Shown one piece after another: positions 1-6,000 of a stretch of 16,320 nucleotides of DNA. This stretch comes from Candidatus Velthaea sp. Lineage in GTDB: Bacteria > Vulcanimicrobiota > Vulcanimicrobiia > Vulcanimicrobiales > Vulcanimicrobiaceae. The stretch is taken from NCBI GenBank assembly GCA_050012475.1, contig JBEKHC010000107.1, positions 1-16,320 of the forward strand, written 5' to 3'. Made by a program: the position numbers. Each line of letters opens with the position of its first letter. Positions within the stretch are counted from its first letter, which is position 1.

Positions 1-3000
1 ATTTCCAGGCCCGCGGCTCGGCTCGAAGGGCCGAACGCCGCGGATTCGGCGCAGCCGAGAGACCCGATAGAAAACACCAAAGCCCGCGGATCGGCCCCAA
101 AGGGCCGAACGCCACGGATTCGGCGCAGCCGAATCCTGCTGGAGGGGGACGCACCGTGCCCACCCATCGCGTAAAGTTCGAACCCGTCGATATCGAGATC
201 GACGTCGATCAAGACGAAAACGTTCTGCATGCCGCGTTTCGGCAAGGCTTGATGCTCGCCCACGGCTGCAAAGCCGGGCAGTGTTCGGCCTGCAAGGCCT
301 ACCTCATCGAAGGCGACACCGATCTGGCAAAATACTCCACGTTTGCGCTTTCGGACATGGAACGTGAAGAGGGCTATACGCTGCTGTGCAAAACGCACGT
401 GTACAGCGATACGGTCATCGAGTTGCTGCACTTCGACGAAGAGATGCTGCGCAACGCGAACCCGATCCGCACGGTGCCGGCGCGCGTGGCCGAGATCGAA
501 GCGCTCACGCACGACATCCGGCGCTTGCGGCTGACGCTCGCAACTCCCGGCGAGCTGACGTTTGCGCCCGGACAATACGTTGACGTTCACGTTCCGGGTT
601 CGGACCAGACGCGTTCGTTCTCGATGGCCAACACGCCGGCTCAGCGCGACTACCTCGAGTTCATCATCAAGCTCTATCCCGGCGGTTTGTTTTCGGGGCT
701 GCTCGAGGGTTCGCTCAAAGCGGGCGATCCGCTCGACGTCACGGGACCGTACGGAACCTGCGTGCTGCGCGAGCGTTCCGAGCGCGACCTCATCTTCATG
801 GGCGGCGGCGCCGGCATGGCGCCGCTGTGGTCGCTCATCAGCGCGCTGGCGGAGAGCAACTCGCAGCGCAACGTCACCTTCTACTACGGCGCGCGCGCGC
901 CGCGCGATATCTTCTTCGCGAACGAGATCGCGGCGCTCGGCGCTCGGCTGCCGAATTTCCGCAGCACGCTGGCGCTCTCCGAAGTCGGCCCGGAGCAGTC
1001 GTGGAACGGCGAAGTCGGGATGATCACCGATGTCGCCGACCGCCTCGAGCCCGATTTGACCGAGCACGAAGCCTATATTTGCGGGCCGCCGCCGATGGTC
1101 GATGCGGCAATCGCCCTGCTCGAACGGCGCGGTGTTCCGGCGGAACGTATCTATTTCGATAAATTCACCACTACGGCGAGCCCCGATCTGGCTCTCGCCC
1201 AGCGGCGCTGACGCGCAAAGAGAGGACGACATCCGTGTCTGTTACAACTGACGCGAACCAAACCGCCGGCACGACCAAAGAACTCCATTCGCGCGACGTT
1301 CCCAGGATCGAGTTCACGGATGCCGAGGCGGGGGCGCTCACGTTCCCCAGCTCCGAAAGCCGCACGTACAATTATTTCACGCCGCAGAAGCAGCGCGCGT
1401 CGGTGTACGAAGAAGTCACCTGCGACGTGCAGCCGGATCCCGAACGCTACCTCACGCAGGGCTGGCTGTACGCCTTTGCCAACGGCGAGGCGGGCTATCC
1501 CAAGGATTGGACGCAGCTCAAATCGTCGGATTGGCACGCCTTCCGCGACCCGAACCAGGAATGGGAACAGACGATCTATCGCAACAACGCCAACGTCGTG
1601 CGGCAGATTCAGCTCAACATCGACAACGCAAAGCTGCAGAAAGCGTTCGCTGCCTGGAACAAGCAGTGGGCGCAGGTCGTCGCCCGCCACGTCGGCGCCT
1701 GGATGCATGCCGAACATGGTCTGGGTATGCACGTTTTCGTACCGGCGCAGCGCGACGCGCCCACGAACATGATCAACAACGCGATTTCCGTCAACTCGAT
1801 GCACAAGCTGCGCTTCGCCCAAGACCTCGCGCTCTACAATCTGGAACTGAGCGAGCAGATCCCTGGTTTCGAGGGCCAAGTGCACAAGTCGGCCTGGATG
1901 CAGGACCCGATCTGGCAAGGCGTGCGCGAGAACGTCGAGCGCCTGACCGCGATCAAAGATTGGGCTGAAGCGGTCTTCGCCGCCAACGTCGTCTTCGAAC
2001 CGCTGGTGGGCGAGCTCTTCCGCAGCAACTTCGTGCTGCAAGTCGCGGCGCCGAACGGCGACTACGTGACGCCCAGCATCGCCGGCGCGGGCGAGAACGA
2101 TTACGAACGCGATTTGCGCTACACCAATGAATTGTTCTCGCTCCTCGTCAACGACAAGCAACACGGCGAATCGAATCGCGGCATCCTCCAGGGCTGGACC
2201 GACCGCTATGCGCCGATGAACCTCAAGGCCGCGCGCGATCTGCAGCCGATCTGGTCGCAGCCGCTGGTCAAGCCGGTCAAATTCGAGGATTCGCTCGACA
2301 ACAGCAAAGCTCGCTTTGCCGCCACCCTCACTGCCCTCAACCTGCAAATGCCCAAGGAGGTCTCCGCATGACTTCGACCCTCGAGACCGGCTTAGGCCGG
2401 TTCCACGCTGATAACACCGCGTCGAATCAGTGCGGCGTCACGCTGATGAATACGTCGGACGGTGAGGTCGTCGCCAGAATCAGCTCGACGAAGCCGGACG
2501 TCACGATCCGTCGGCTGCCCTCGATGATCCGGGTCGACGGCGTTCGCAAGATCGTCTTCGACATGGCCGAGATCTCCGAGGTCTTGGGCCGCGAATTCAC
2601 GCCGGCTGATTTCGAGGAAATCATGTCGACGCACTACGGCCGGATGGTCGTGCTCGACGATAAAGTCGTGATGTTCGCCAACCCCGAGGATGCGGCGGAA
2701 TACATCGATTTCGACCTCAAGCCCGTCAAGTAAAGCCGGGGCAACGCATGGGGAAGGTTCTCAAGTACAACGAGGAGGCACGGCGCCTCCTCGAAAGCGG
2801 CGTGAACAAGATCGCCGACGCGGTCAAGGTCACGCTGGGGCCCAAGGGACGCAACGTGGTGCTCGAAAAGCTGACCGGCTCGCCGACGATCACCAACGAC
2901 GGCGTCACGATCGCGCGCGAGATCGTACTCAGCAACCCGTTCGAGAACATGGGGGCGCAACTGCTGCGTGAAGTTGCGTCCAAGACCAATGACGTCGCCG

Positions 3001-6000
3001 GCGACGGGACGACCACCGCGACGGTGTTGGCCCAGGCGATGGTGCGCGACGGGATGCGCAGCATCGCCGACGGGGCCAACCCGGTGCTCATCAAGAGCGG
3101 CATCGAACGGGCGACCGAACTCGTGCTGGCCGAACTGGGCCGCGTGGCGAAACCAATTCGCGACCAGCGCGAACTCGAACACGTCGCGTCGATTTCCGCC
3201 AACAACGATCCGCGCATCGGCTTCGTCATCGCCGCGGCGATGGACCGGGTGGGGCTCGAAGGCGTGGTGACGGTTGAAGAATCGCAGTCGCTGGGACTCG
3301 ATCTCGAATTTGTCGAGGGACTCGAGTTCGGCAACGGCTACATCTCGCCGTACATGGTAACGGACCAAGTCCGCATGGAAGCGGTGCTCGACAATCCGTA
3401 CATCGTGCTGACCAACAAGAAGATCAGCGTGGTGCAGGATCTCATGCCGATCCTCGAGCGCGTGCTCAAGTCGCAGCGGCCGCTGGTCATCTTGGCCGAA
3501 ACCGTCGACGGTTCGGCGCTCGGCATGCTCGTCACGAATAAGGTTCACGGCAACCTGCTGTCGGTCGCGGTTCGCGCACCGGGATTCGGCACGCGCCGGC
3601 TGGCCGAACTCCACGACATCGCTGCCTTTACCGGCGGTCGCGTGATTACCGAAGACGCCGGGCTCAAACTCGCCGGCGCAACGCTCGAGGACCTCGGACA
3701 AGCGCGCAAGATCGTCGTTACCGAAGGCAAGACGACGATCATCGAGGGCGCCGGATCGACCGCCGACGTCGAAGCTCGGATCGGTCAAATCAAGGCTGAA
3801 CTCGAGCGCGTCACCCACGATCACGATCGGGACGTCTTGCAAGCCCGTCTCGCGCGGTTGGCCAGCCGCGTGGCGGTCATCCGGGTTGGGGCGGCAACGC
3901 CGGTCGAACTCAAGGAGCGTCAGCACCGCGTCGAGGATTCGCTTTCCGCGACGCGTGCGGCGGTGGAAGAGGGCGTGTTGCCCGGCGGGGGCACGGCCTT
4001 GGTGCAAGCCGAGCATGTCTTGGACGCGCTCGACGATCTGCGCGACGATCCGGCGGTTGGCGCCAAGATCGTGCGCAACGCACTGGCCGAGCCGCTGCGC
4101 TGGATCGCCCGCAACGCGGGCTACGATGGCGACGGGATCGCGGCGCGCGTCCGGTCGCTGCCTGCAGGCGACGGCTTCAATGCTCTCACCGGTGGGTACG
4201 GTGACATGTTTGGCATGGGAATCATCGATCCGGCGAAAGTCACCCGTTCGGCCCTGCAGAGCGCAGCTTCGGTCGCCGCCCTGCTGCTCACCACCGAGGC
4301 GCTGGTCGCCGAGGAAGTGTTCGGACCGGCCGGAGCGATCCACGCCCCGGGCTTCGGCGATCTCGCGGAAGGCTTGCCTCGCCCGTCGTCGCTGGTGTGA
4401 TGACGGCGCATTGAGCCCGCTCGCGCTGCTCGTCGATCGCGTTCGCTCCCGTTCGTCGGCTTCGCCCAACGCGATCCCGGCGGACGGTGCGCGCGCGGTG
4501 CTGCAACCCGATGAAGACGTTCGCGCGCGCGACCGGCTGGCGGTGGCCAGCGCGCGCACGCAGCGCCGCTACATTTCGCTGTTTTTGTACCTGGTCGGTC
4601 CCGGCATCATCGTCATGCTCGCCGAGAACGACGGTCCGAGCATGCTGGCCTACGCCACGACCGGCGCAACGTACGGCATCGGATTCTTCATCCCGTTCAT
4701 CGTCGCCACGTTTGCGATGGCATTCGTCGTTCAGGAAGTGACCGCGCGCCTCGCGATCGCGACCAACTGCGGTCACGCACGGTTGATCTTCGAGCGGTAC
4801 GGAGCGTTTTGGGGCCGCTTTGCGCTCGGCGACCTCGTCATCGGCAACGCACTGACGCTCGTGGCGGAATTCATCGCGATCTGCGCGGGGGCGCGCTATT
4901 TCGGGATTCCGCCGCTCGTAGCGGTCGGCGCGACGTTCGTCATCGTCCTGGCGGCCTCTGCGCTAGGCCGGTACCGGCTGTGGGAACGCGTCGTGATCGG
5001 GCTTGCGCTGGGCAACTGCATCTTTATCCCCGCCGCGTTTTTCGCTCACACCGATCCGCATGCCGTGATCGGCTCGTTCGCAACGCTCGGCCTGCCGCCG
5101 CTGGGCGGCGGAGGCATGATGTTCGTAACGCTCTGCATGGCGAACATCGGCGCGACGGTCACGCCGTGGATGATTTTCTTTCAGCAAAGCGCGGTCGTCG
5201 ATAAGGGCCTGATGCGTGCGGATCTGCCGCAGGCGCGCATCGACACCGCGCTCGGTGCCGCGATCGCTGCCATCGCGGCCATCGCGACGGTCGTCGCAGC
5301 GTCGCCGCTCTTCGTGCATCACATCGATCCGGCGAACCTGAGCAGCGGAGCGGATTTCGCCAGCGCGCTGCGGCCGTATCTGGGCAGCATCGGCTCGACG
5401 CTGTTCGCGCTGGGGATGATCGAAGCCGGGCTCGTCGCGATCATGGCGATCTCAACGAGTTCCGCTTACGCGATCGGCGACGTATCGCATCGCGGCGCGA
5501 GCCTCAATCTCGACTTTGCTCACGCGCGTTTATTTTACGTGACCGGTTTGCTCTCGGTGGCGATCGCCGCGGCGATCGTGCTCATTCCGGGTGCGCCGTT
5601 GCTGGCGATCACCTTGACGGTCAACGTGATCGCCACGCTGCTGATGCCGCCGGCGCTCGTCTTTCTGCTGCTGCTCGTCAACGATCGCGAGCTGGTCGGC
5701 AATCTGGCCAACAGCCGGCTGCAAAACATCGCGGTGACGACGGTCATCGTCCTCGTCGCCGGTGCCGGGGCGGCCTTCGGACTGATGACGGCGTTCCCTG
5801 AGCTGGCTCCGCGATGACCGTCTCGCGCTTGCGGCATGGGCCGCACGGCCTCGAAAAGTACCGCCGAGCCAGCCTGAACCGGCCGACGTTGCTGTTGCTC
5901 GCGGGTCTGCGGGCATATGCCATCGTGGCTGTCCTCATCGCCATCTACGCATTCTTTCACGCAGCGCGCTAAGCGGAGCTGGTCGGCTCAGCTGCCGCTC

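Follow-up and report, generated by a model that had tools for sequence, protein, structure and literature searches.

A rearranged group 5 monooxygenase operon with its own sensor suggests that peat phototrophs may feed on small volatile carbon compounds

The closest described relatives of the locus studied here are the Mim/Prm systems (MimABCD/MimG of M. smegmatis and PrmABCD of Gordonia TY-5, Rhodococcus BCP1/RHA1 and Pseudonocardia TY-7), which belong to subgroup B of the group 5 SDIMO enzymes. The accessible part of a review (PMC11825192) includes in its definition of group 5 the gene order alpha subunit, reductase, beta subunit, coupling protein, calls the subgroup exclusively actinobacterial and hypothesizes that ketones are its usual substrates; the accessible part of its supplement has MimABCD oxidizing propane, acetone and phenol. 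Cells grown on acetone show high abundance of a Mim cluster that includes an amidohydrolase and Adh1 (PMC7176365, accessible sections). For phototrophs, the combination of a di-iron alkane monooxygenase with AcmA/AcmB was proposed in a preprint of 2019 from a Chloroflexota genome (10.1101/531582, accessible text). Neither the enzyme class nor the idea of a phototroph with an alkane oxygenase is new, and the operon described below is a variant. The genus Velthaea was reportedly named by Ji et al. 2021 (ISME J), a paper that may already list these genes.

Gene content and order of the locus

We analyzed a window of 16,320 nt, the whole stretch of contig C107 (JBEKHC010000107.1) of Candidatus Velthaea sp. 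GCA_050012475.1 (G000), against three Velthaea congeners (G001–G003), carriers from two other Vulcanimicrobiaceae genera (G035 and G241), a family set of 348 genomes (G000 and 347 others) and 78 actinobacterial loci among the matches listed. The GTDB scan for prm loci covered the best 80 of 600 stretches and is hence not a census. The operon occupies the start of C107 and the end of contig C68:

1..155, no strand: intergenic spacer separating prmB from the unassembled prmA
156..1211, + strand: prmB/mimB, [2Fe-2S]-FAD reductase, 351 aa (NF045803, 262 bits, under the cut-off of 500)
1235..2371, + strand: prmC/mimC, hydroxylase beta subunit, 378 aa (PF02332, 193 bits)
2368..2733, + strand: prmD/mimD, coupling protein, 121 aa (NF045941 PropMonoxMimD, 172 bits, above the cut-off of 150)
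2748..4400, + strand: MimG-type dedicated GroEL, 550 aa (GroEL family matches), 3′ of prmD
4411..5817, + strand: NRAMP-like metal transporter, immediately 3′ of groEL (weak MntH match, E 2.6e-21, under the cut-off)
C68:24919-28200: amidohydrolase-FeS-X-adh, end of contig C68

The four ORFs from prmB to groEL, of which prmC and prmD overlap by 4 bases, and the position of amidohydrolase-FeS-X-adh as the terminal genes of C68 were confirmed as given in a preliminary description. Identities to congeners and, among the matches listed, to actinobacterial counterparts were 82–85% and ~48–59% for PrmB, 83–88% (3/3 congeners) and 53–66% for PrmC, and 92–94% and ~57–66% (prm-linked copies) for GroEL, which is only 55% identical to a second GroEL on C90 of the same genome. 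The 82–96% congener identity ascribed earlier to the operon does not extend to X (69–70%) or the kinase (74–79%), both of which fall below it. The nramp start was inferred from the G001 start and the junction sequence; the gene also lies behind groEL in G001, G003 and G241, is absent there in G002 and G035, and could possibly supply Fe/Mn.

The order amidohydrolase-FeS-X-adh-prmA-prmB-prmC-prmD-groEL, often followed by nramp, recurs in six genomes of three genera. Its alpha-reductase-beta-coupling core is whole in G001, G002, G035 and G241, carries an NN gap inside prmA in G003 and is split by the contig gap in G000. The G003 prmA, previously described as partial, is really interrupted by this NN scaffold gap within an otherwise present operon, which rules out a pseudogene or frameshift. 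The operon is genus-wide in Velthaea, as proposed (four genomes, with prmA unassembled in G000), and rare in the family (5 of 347 other genomes), but it is not confined to Velthaea, since G035 and G241 have the same order. Phototrophy of the genus was likewise borne out by pufLM in 4/4 Velthaea genomes; pufLM occurs in all five other carriers, and the 30 of 348 genomes that have pufLM include every one of the six carriers.

The proposed Mycolicibacterium/Gordonia layout, in which prmABCD is followed by amidohydrolase, FeS protein, adh and groEL, was not upheld: the Velthaea order is permuted, with the accessory block upstream, an extra gene X, and a kinase and response regulator. Of the 78 actinobacterial loci among the matches listed, 64 have the amidohydrolase downstream of prmD (the other 14 lack it or are cut), and 0/78 have an upstream amidohydrolase or gene X. 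The Velthaea amidohydrolase is mostly 40–45% identical to actinobacterial copies (among the matches listed) versus 71–86% to X-cassette copies. Accessory block and regulator derive from a different family, found also in Ktedonobacteria-like contigs.

A search of the G000 assembly recovered no prmA, as the preliminary description had stated, and congener DNA was confirmed to align with the C68 end on one side of prmA and with the C107 start on the other; prmA is present in 3/3 congeners. Copies of a genome-wide repeat, ~50 bp each, lie at 9–58 and 82–132 (1..155 gave 91 BLAST rows in G000, three of them self), and the C68 tail likewise matches a repeat (12 rows in G000, including self). The repeats at the start of C107 probably caused the contig break, and the prmA of G000 was lost into the assembly gap between repeats. 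The sequencing run holding G000's population contains Velthaea-type prmA contigs at depth 7.1–8.9 (85–87% identical to G001); the four contigs beside them have depth 6.3–8.2, and three of these equal the G000 mismatch counts exactly. The groEL contig of run X1 deviates from the G000 expectation (144 versus 151 mismatches), and the four runs examined, of 20 listed, held no contig bridging adh-prmA-prmB. No contig in the bin is shorter than 2,506 bp.

Enzyme, cassette and regulator

Assignment of the alpha subunit to group 5 used a 40% identity cut-off together with grouping with Prm/Mim enzymes, in trees built without THF enzymes. Congener PrmA is 81–84% identical to the 78 actinobacterial loci (among the matches listed), 81% to TY-7 PrmA, and clades with Prm/Mim enzymes (support 100/99). 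The di-iron ligand pattern E, ExxH, E, ExxH, read in congener and other-genus PrmA and not in that of G000, corresponds to E97, E127/H130, E192 and E226/H229 in G001, with the same ligands in G002, G035 and G241. Checked active-site positions, labelled after MmoX, were identical at 22/22 in 78/78 actinobacterial loci (among the matches listed) and in TY-7 PrmA. With a MimD-type coupling protein and a linked GroEL (MimG) also present, the proposed group 5 membership of the predicted Velthaea-type enzyme holds: gene order, PrmA identity, ligands and MimD profile agree. As to the direction of transfer, Velthaea and G035/G241 form one group (SH-aLRT 97) in an 83-row quick tree; the tree of the p-AU test did not resolve them, and a constraint that kept 14 named actinobacterial PrmA in one group could not be rejected (p-AU 0.111). 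Six moss- and peat-type phototroph genomes take this subgroup into a new, barely cultured phylum, an extension that bears on the interpretation of prmA amplicons and on the microbial sink for acetone and light alkanes in peatlands.

Gene X has no Pfam match. Its product has a predicted degenerate tyrosine-recombinase fold (core-binding plus partial catalytic), a matter of fold similarity only: the best matches are an integron integrase (Z 8.5) and XerA (Z 8.1), both at rmsd >13, with domain-wise Z of 6–7 at ~3 Å. MrpR and SroF are non-catalytic repressor derivatives of tyrosine recombinases, and the scores of X against them (Z 4.9 and 5.6, respectively) are too low to show kinship. A 38-sequence alignment does not conserve the catalytic R...HxxR...Y: the position of the first catalytic Arg is variable, neither HxxR nor a C-terminal Tyr is conserved, and two Cys are invariant. 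Unlike tyrosine recombinases, X sits in a metabolic cassette. This cassette mostly occurs without any monooxygenase (57/80 loci; 20/33 among loci of at least 9 kb) and may therefore serve another alcohol. It is an unstudied module that adjoins copper hydrocarbon monooxygenases (11/80 loci) as well as di-iron ones; six copper monooxygenase query proteins gave no match in G000.

The N-terminal GAF domain of the divergent histidine kinase is a homologue of the sensor in actinobacterial prm regulators, and at 69/78 actinobacterial loci (among the matches listed) the adjoining regulator matches the kinase N-terminus; six such regulators were scanned, four being Fis-type and two carrying a winged-helix tail. 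The kinase has two further GAF domains, and its partner is an OmpR-type response regulator. A candidate operator of four conserved TTTCAC boxes (spacing 11/21–22/11) lies upstream of an extended −10 element. These boxes occur in four of 43 cassette loci, three with the full kinase and one (cut) from G000's own population. They are absent from 39/39 X-cassette loci without the kinase, on which count the gene X product was rejected as their binder. A dihydroxyacetone kinase was also considered for the regulon, given a second operator-like site at C121:19120 in G000, 500 bp before a dha operon, and was dropped: congeners have no close orthologue (46–47%), and the site was assigned to a small ORF. 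MimR reportedly responds to acetone; the literature searched contained no statement of this. Judged by sequence, regulation has shifted to a histidine kinase with the prm-regulator GAF sensor, an OmpR-type partner and a putative four-box operator. These three lead directly to the inducer and are a candidate part for an acetone biosensor.

Substrates and downstream genes

The rearranged operon with its own sensor suggests that these peat phototrophs may feed on small volatile carbon compounds. Our preferred reading, at a probability of about 0.55, is an inducible operon that would scavenge small oxygenated C3 molecules and take propane as a co-substrate. Because the AcmA route is limited to G000 (0/5 other carriers), the function shared by the carriers is most likely oxidation of acetone/2-propanol to acetol, again with propane as co-substrate. 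PrmA/PrmC would form the di-iron hydroxylase, its folding aided by the dedicated GroEL, with PrmB passing electrons from NADH and PrmD coupling the reaction, roles known from the family. The oxygenase would convert acetone to acetol and, when propane is present, propane to 2-propanol, and the Zn alcohol dehydrogenase, by analogy with actinobacterial MimABCD, would oxidize 2-propanol or acetol. The kinase GAF would sense the substrate and phosphorylate the OmpR-type regulator, which would bind the four TTTCAC boxes, and photophosphorylation could spare substrate for biomass and the NADH used by the oxygenase. In G000 alone, an AcmA-type Baeyer-Villiger branch would turn acetone into methyl acetate and this into acetate and methanol, with methanol passing to XoxF, mainly for energy.

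The C30 BVMO keeps its AcmA label with qualifications. It is a type I enzyme of the AcmA clade, 57–58% identical to two His-type BVMOs versus 40–45% to six others. With the acmA-acmB pair of Gordonia polyisoprenivorans (not the TY-5 sequence itself), the C30 BVMO and esterase share 57% and 56% identity, and the BVMO has the active-site Ala insertion in common. Gordonia TY-5 has His325 and an acmA-acmB bicistron; G000, the sole one of six carriers with AcmA, has Lys in both copies, convergent genes on C30 and duplicates. The C30 esterase stands as AcmB, scoring 603 bits on the equivalog NF052559 (cut-off 550), and a further G000 esterase scores 554 bits. An additional acmA-like gene on C69 and an additional acmB-like gene on C21 had been overlooked; the two acmA-like copies are 92% identical. 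No AcmA orthologue was found in 3/3 congeners, G035 or G241 (best 25–44%), and AcmB orthologues occur in only two of the five other carriers. It is thus likely the oxygenase itself that would remove acetone in those five.

The lanthanide methanol dehydrogenase reported on C91 was verified: its top three solved matches are XoxF-type, and it contains WDYDG, which we take to be the extra-Asp DxD motif of XoxF. A MoxJ-like protein (just under cut-off) and a cytochrome c lie downstream, and PqqD is present in 4/4 genomes. No XoxF orthologue was found in G002 (88% complete). Searches for an H4MPT or FtfL formaldehyde route found none. The full propane/acetone route claimed earlier exists on paper for G000 and not elsewhere, AcmA not being found in the other five carriers. 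Acetone carboxylase searches gave 0/4 genomes, with no signal from the control either, and the acetoacetate decarboxylase family gave partial matches in two of four genomes, none in G000, and no internal source of acetone emerged. G000 also has a second di-iron enzyme that had been overlooked: C10 encodes a group 2 phenol hydroxylase together with meta-cleavage genes; phenol being covered by this separate enzyme counts for the acetone reading. Counting against it are the Gordonia TY-5 propane route, complete on paper in G000, and the acetol/methylglyoxal downstream enzymes, which were not identified.

That selection acted on propane use, with propane oxidized via 2-propanol to acetone and onward through AcmA/AcmB or acetol, is the next-best reading, though doubtful. 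The pocket is identical to that of the characterized TY-7 propane enzyme; however, identical pockets cannot separate acetone from propane, as the same enzymes act on both. The two AcmA-like BVMOs with the Gordonia Ala insertion, two AcmB equivalogs and XoxF of G000, the copper-monooxygenase neighbors of the X cassette and the confinement of all carriers to pufLM genomes fit propane use. Yet propane is scarce in bogs, no XoxF orthologue was found in G002, and the failure to find AcmA in the other five carriers (AcmB in two) or an H4MPT/FtfL formaldehyde route makes propane not the best single reading. At the position of His325 in TY-5 ACMO, an enzyme with a preference for butanone and cyclobutanone (PMC6215540, accessible part), the G000 BVMO has Lys. 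Propane use would imply light-assisted alkane oxidizers in peat.

Less likely still is another group 5 substrate, such as cyclic or linear ethers, butanone or other plant volatiles, or phenol converted to hydroquinone. The group 5 range includes THF, dioxane, methylethylketone and NDMA (PMC11825192, accessible part), and the acetone reading leaves the two extra kinase GAF domains, amidohydrolase, FeS protein and X unexplained; against this stand PrmA's 81–84% identity (among the matches listed) to Prm/Mim-type enzymes with the same pocket, in trees without THF enzymes, and G000's own phenol hydroxylase. A binning artefact or decaying remnant (prmA lost in G000, or genes from a contaminating actinobacterium) is very improbable: bin contamination is 5.34%, prmA is unassembled and two acmA-like copies are 92% identical, but two congeners carry the same operon on 400–800 kb contigs, C107 encodes ribosomal and housekeeping proteins (rplS, signal peptidases, RNase HII), the operon flanks align to congeners and the remainder of C30 does so at 66–80%, the remaining ORFs are all intact, and prmA-type contigs occur at matching depth.

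More tentatively than the acetone reading itself, we propose that several peat/soil Vulcanimicrobiaceae genera act as a light-assisted acetone and propane sink through a mosaic operon. Its parts would be an actinobacterial-type di-iron monooxygenase; a widespread, undescribed amidohydrolase-FeS-X-adh cassette, with X as a recombinase that has been domesticated and no longer catalyzes; and, as a new ketone sensor, a two-component system that uses the GAF domain of the prm regulators and has a defined operator.

Comparison with described systems

Velthaea and Mim/Prm clusters share the alpha-reductase-beta-coupling order, a dedicated GroEL, an amidohydrolase, an FeS-assembly-domain protein and a Zn ADH (PMC4428276, accessible part), as well as PrmA at 81–84% (among the matches listed) with the same pocket and an adjacent GAF-type sensor. 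They differ in that the Mim/Prm accessory genes lie downstream and a one-component Fis-type regulator is used, whereas in Velthaea the accessory genes lie upstream, come from another subfamily and include gene X, regulation is two-component, and the host is a phototrophic member of the Vulcanimicrobiaceae. Two metagenomic group 5 loci (L175 and L179), called Ktedonobacteria-like solely on an X 84–87% identical to a Ktedonobacteraceae-labelled protein, both have the amidohydrolase-FeS-X-adh cassette, and L179 has a full-length GAF kinase (48%) and TTTCAC boxes, as in Velthaea; unlike Velthaea, their cassette lies downstream of prmD and their PrmA is only 75% identical, with one pocket change. 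'Ca. Chlorolinea photoalkanotrophicum' OHK40, a proposed photoalkanotroph with a type II reaction centre, has a di-iron monooxygenase without gamma subunit, placed by its authors between sMMO and PrMO, plus acetone monooxygenase and methyl acetate hydrolase, in one genome (10.1101/531582, accessible text). Unlike OHK40, the system described here has a clear group 5 enzyme and a conserved operon with a putative operator, in six genomes of three genera.

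The prm operon and its missing alpha subunit

The window is contig C107 of the genome under study (G000; a bin of 5.36 Mb in 204 contigs, completeness 93.8%, contamination 5.3%). Four closely packed plus-strand ORFs at C107 156-4400 continue the genes that end contig C68:

C68, terminal genes: amidohydrolase, FeS-assembly-domain protein, X (cassette ORF), Zn alcohol dehydrogenase (adh)
C68, opposite orientation to this cassette: GAF histidine kinase and OmpR-type regulator
C107 156-4400 (+), first ORF: ferredoxin-FAD reductase (prmB)
C107 156-4400 (+), second ORF: hydroxylase beta subunit (prmC), PF02332
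C107 156-4400 (+), third ORF: coupling protein (prmD), MimD equivalog at 172 bits (cut-off 150)
C107 156-4400 (+), fourth ORF: GroEL, sharing only 55% identity with its C90 counterpart
C107, directly after GroEL: NRAMP-like transporter

This arrangement, proposed in a preliminary description, was borne out by the ORFs and by congener alignment. Elsewhere in the window, translations alone indicated a beta-lactamase-fold serine hydrolase (6035-7327, -), a Ser/Thr kinase (11266-12543, -) and an ordinary rplS-lepB-lepB-rbgA-rnhB-yraN block (12540-16141, -).

The group 5 alpha subunit (prmA) is absent from the G000 assembly, whose sole alpha match, on C10, is 25% identical. In all three Velthaea congeners (G001-G003), prmA is flanked by DNA aligning to the C68 end and the C107 start, the break in the G003 gene being an NN scaffold gap. 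Because the C68 and C107 edges of the gap both fall within dispersed repeats and the shortest contig in the bin measures 2,506 bp, a prmA piece of ~2 kb was probably dropped. Contigs of 4 of 20 listed metagenome runs were aligned to the G001 operon. In one (X1), contigs over the amidohydrolase, adh and prmBC were 102, 131 and 187 letters off G001, identical to the G000 counts, and the groEL contig showed 144 mismatches versus 151 for G000. The same run held two prmA contigs (depth 8.9 and 7.1, versus 6.3-8.2 for other operon contigs) with 87% and 85% identity to G001; across those stretches congeners reach 84-88% and carriers from two other genera (G035, G241) 77-83%, and actinobacterial prmA reaches 76-79% in a whole-gene comparison. 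These contigs argue strongly, albeit indirectly since none in the four aligned runs bridges the C68-C107 gap, for prmA in the G000 population. Set beside them and the congener alignments, an artefactual operon is highly improbable, even with prmA missing from the assembly.

Group 5 is defined by the gene order alpha-reductase-beta-coupling (PMC11825192, in part). Congener PrmA shares 81-84% identity with the 78 actinobacterial loci among the GTDB matches listed, and all six iron ligands were found. All 78 of these loci, and Pseudonocardia TY-7 PrmA, have the same 22 residues at what we take to be the ligand and pocket positions. An 83-row quick tree placed family PrmA as one group among actinobacterial sequences; a careful 22-row tree left it unresolved and did not reject actinobacterial monophyly (p-AU 0.111). 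Six database PrmA homologues (P0140, P0146, P0148, P0153, P0207 and P0239) carry annotations of an additional IclR or Fer2 domain, which may reflect read-through in gene calling or fusions.

Distribution, accessory cassette and regulation

A full group 5 PrmA occurs in 5 of 347 other Vulcanimicrobiaceae genomes: G001, G002, G003, G035 and G241. The last two keep the Velthaea gene order and are the carriers in 1 of 2 and 1 of 3 genomes of their genera, with no match in their congeners; G032 and G316 hold distant alpha subunits only. The operon is thus present in all four Velthaea and rare in the family, as previously described, and G035 and G241 show that it is not confined to the genus. Reaction-centre genes exceeded the cut-off in 30 of 348 family genomes, all six carriers of the operon included, and prmA was found in none of the other 318, an association inflated by kinship because carriers span only three genera. 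G000 bears pufLMC and bchFXYZ-type genes on C88, and all four Velthaea genomes gave a strong RuBisCO match. At least half of the window's words were contained in seven metagenome runs (5 peat, 2 soil).

The Mycolicibacterium/Gordonia layout originally claimed did not hold: the accessory genes stand in front, and neither an upstream amidohydrolase nor X was found in any of the 78 listed actinobacterial loci. In 64 of these the amidohydrolase lies downstream of prmD, a layout described in the portion seen of PMC4428276. The Velthaea amidohydrolase clusters with the X-cassette family, distant from actinobacterial copies. X, with 165 homologues among 8,000 scored candidates, reached full strength in 7 of 401 sampled phylum genomes (0 outside Vulcanimicrobiaceae). 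The seventh family genome with the cassette, G245 (L274, L278; unpublished, 93% complete, 450 contigs), had no match to prmA, prmC or pufLM. Among 80 examined of 386 confirmed metagenome X loci, amidohydrolase, FeS or adh genes adjoin X in 79. A di-iron monooxygenase neighbours 12 of the 80 and a copper monooxygenase 11; the remaining 57 have neither, though 37 of those loci are short. At L159, L160, L171, L176, L181, L186, L201, L202, L213, L215 and L216, it adjoins copper membrane monooxygenase genes on high-GC metagenome contigs, often with an LVIVD-repeat gene, and might serve hydrocarbon oxidisers as an all-purpose module for handling alcohols. The predicted fold of X is tyrosine recombinase-like (model pLDDT 83.5; best Z 8.5 and Foldseek E 1.1e-3, both modest); in sequence alignment the conserved recombinase catalytic residues are absent and two Cys are invariant. 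Our guess is an accessory with a DNA-binding or metal-binding role.

Kinase residues 1-230 match the operon-adjacent regulator in 69 of the 78 listed actinobacterial loci (26-39% identity); six such regulators scanned comprised four Fis-type and two with a winged-helix tail. The Velthaea kinase joins this sensor to two further GAF domains and to a kinase core that retains its His. The prm promoter carries four TTTCAC-type boxes (spacing 11/21-22/11) and then an extended -10, all kept across three genera. Upstream DNA was available for 43 cassette loci: the only three with the full kinase have the boxes, as does one of the G000 population, against 0 of the other 39. We infer that the response regulator binds them. 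The proximal box plus -10 gave two sites in G000, five across three congeners, none in G035 and G241, and 0 control matches. Every non-prm site lies upstream of one 116-aa ORF, which among the 348 family genomes was found in the four Velthaea only:

G000:C121:19120-19490 (broken copy); L262; L261; L266

A prm-type operator box and -10 precede this ORF in three of the four, and it has a weak Atlas link to phage replisome-organiser-like N-terminal domains.

Substrate and downstream enzymes

Oxygenase, alcohol dehydrogenase and sensor are common to all carriers; AcmA is not among them. We favour acetone/2-propanol scavenging with propane as co-substrate (probability roughly 55%). The consulted part of PMC7176365 reports that a related cluster, which includes an amidohydrolase and Adh1, is abundant during growth on acetone, and that of the review PMC11825192 hypothesises ketones as usual substrates. 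Its supplement, in part, describes M. smegmatis MimABCD, which requires MimG, as acting on propane, acetone and phenol. Propane as the selected substrate we consider unlikely, and service to other group 5 substrates somewhat less likely still.

G000 has a BVMO on C30 whose 57% identity to acmA of the acmA-acmB pair in one Gordonia genome we confirmed. It has the Ala insertion known from TY-5 ACMO, deletion of which abolished acetone-stimulated turnover (PMC6215540, in part), and Lys at the TY-5 His325 site. C69 carries an acmA-like copy, 92% identical, and C21 a second AcmB equivalog. Both the acmA-like gene and a PucR-type regulator exist in two copies (G000:C30:4056-7594, C69:8455-15863; DNA identity 89% and 70%), and by translation the C30 copy adjoins an ORF resembling the reverse transcriptases of group II introns. 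Among the five other carriers, an AcmA orthologue was found in none, AcmB in two and XoxF in four. Because neither MCH (0 of 4 genomes searched) nor FtfL (0 of 5) was found, with positive controls, oxidation is a likelier fate for methanol than direct assimilation.

A complete phenol hydroxylase of group 2, accompanied by catechol 2,3-dioxygenase and further genes for meta-cleavage, lies on C10 (G000:C10:1339-10589, L017). Of the 347 other family genomes, only G032 and G316 have distant alpha subunits of this kind, and none of the congeners does. Translations at G000:C121:19630-23659 give dhaL, dhaM, HPr-like, enzyme I-like and dhaK genes, a PTS-dependent dihydroxyacetone kinase operon to which no congener has a close orthologue; C82 bears another dhaK.

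Comparison with known systems

Literature searches bore out the earlier statement of novelty: no report of this operon was found, whether for Velthaea, for Eremiobacterota/Vulcanimicrobiota or for phototrophs with propane monooxygenase, the genus-naming paper and most supplements lying outside their scope. The operon goes unmentioned in the portions covered of PMC9758169, PMC6664022, PMC9535955, PMC8767102 and PMC9455692, two of which describe other hydrocarbon genes in the phylum, and in the PMC11825192 supplement. The preprint 10.1101/531582, in part, puts forward a phototroph of the Chloroflexota that combines a di-iron alkane monooxygenase with acetone monooxygenase and methyl acetate hydrolase, and points out phototrophy genes in Methylocella; the concept of a phototroph with such a monooxygenase therefore has prior art. 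The operon is real, and its novelty lies in the range of hosts, in the permuted, X-bearing cassette and in the two-component switch and putative operator.
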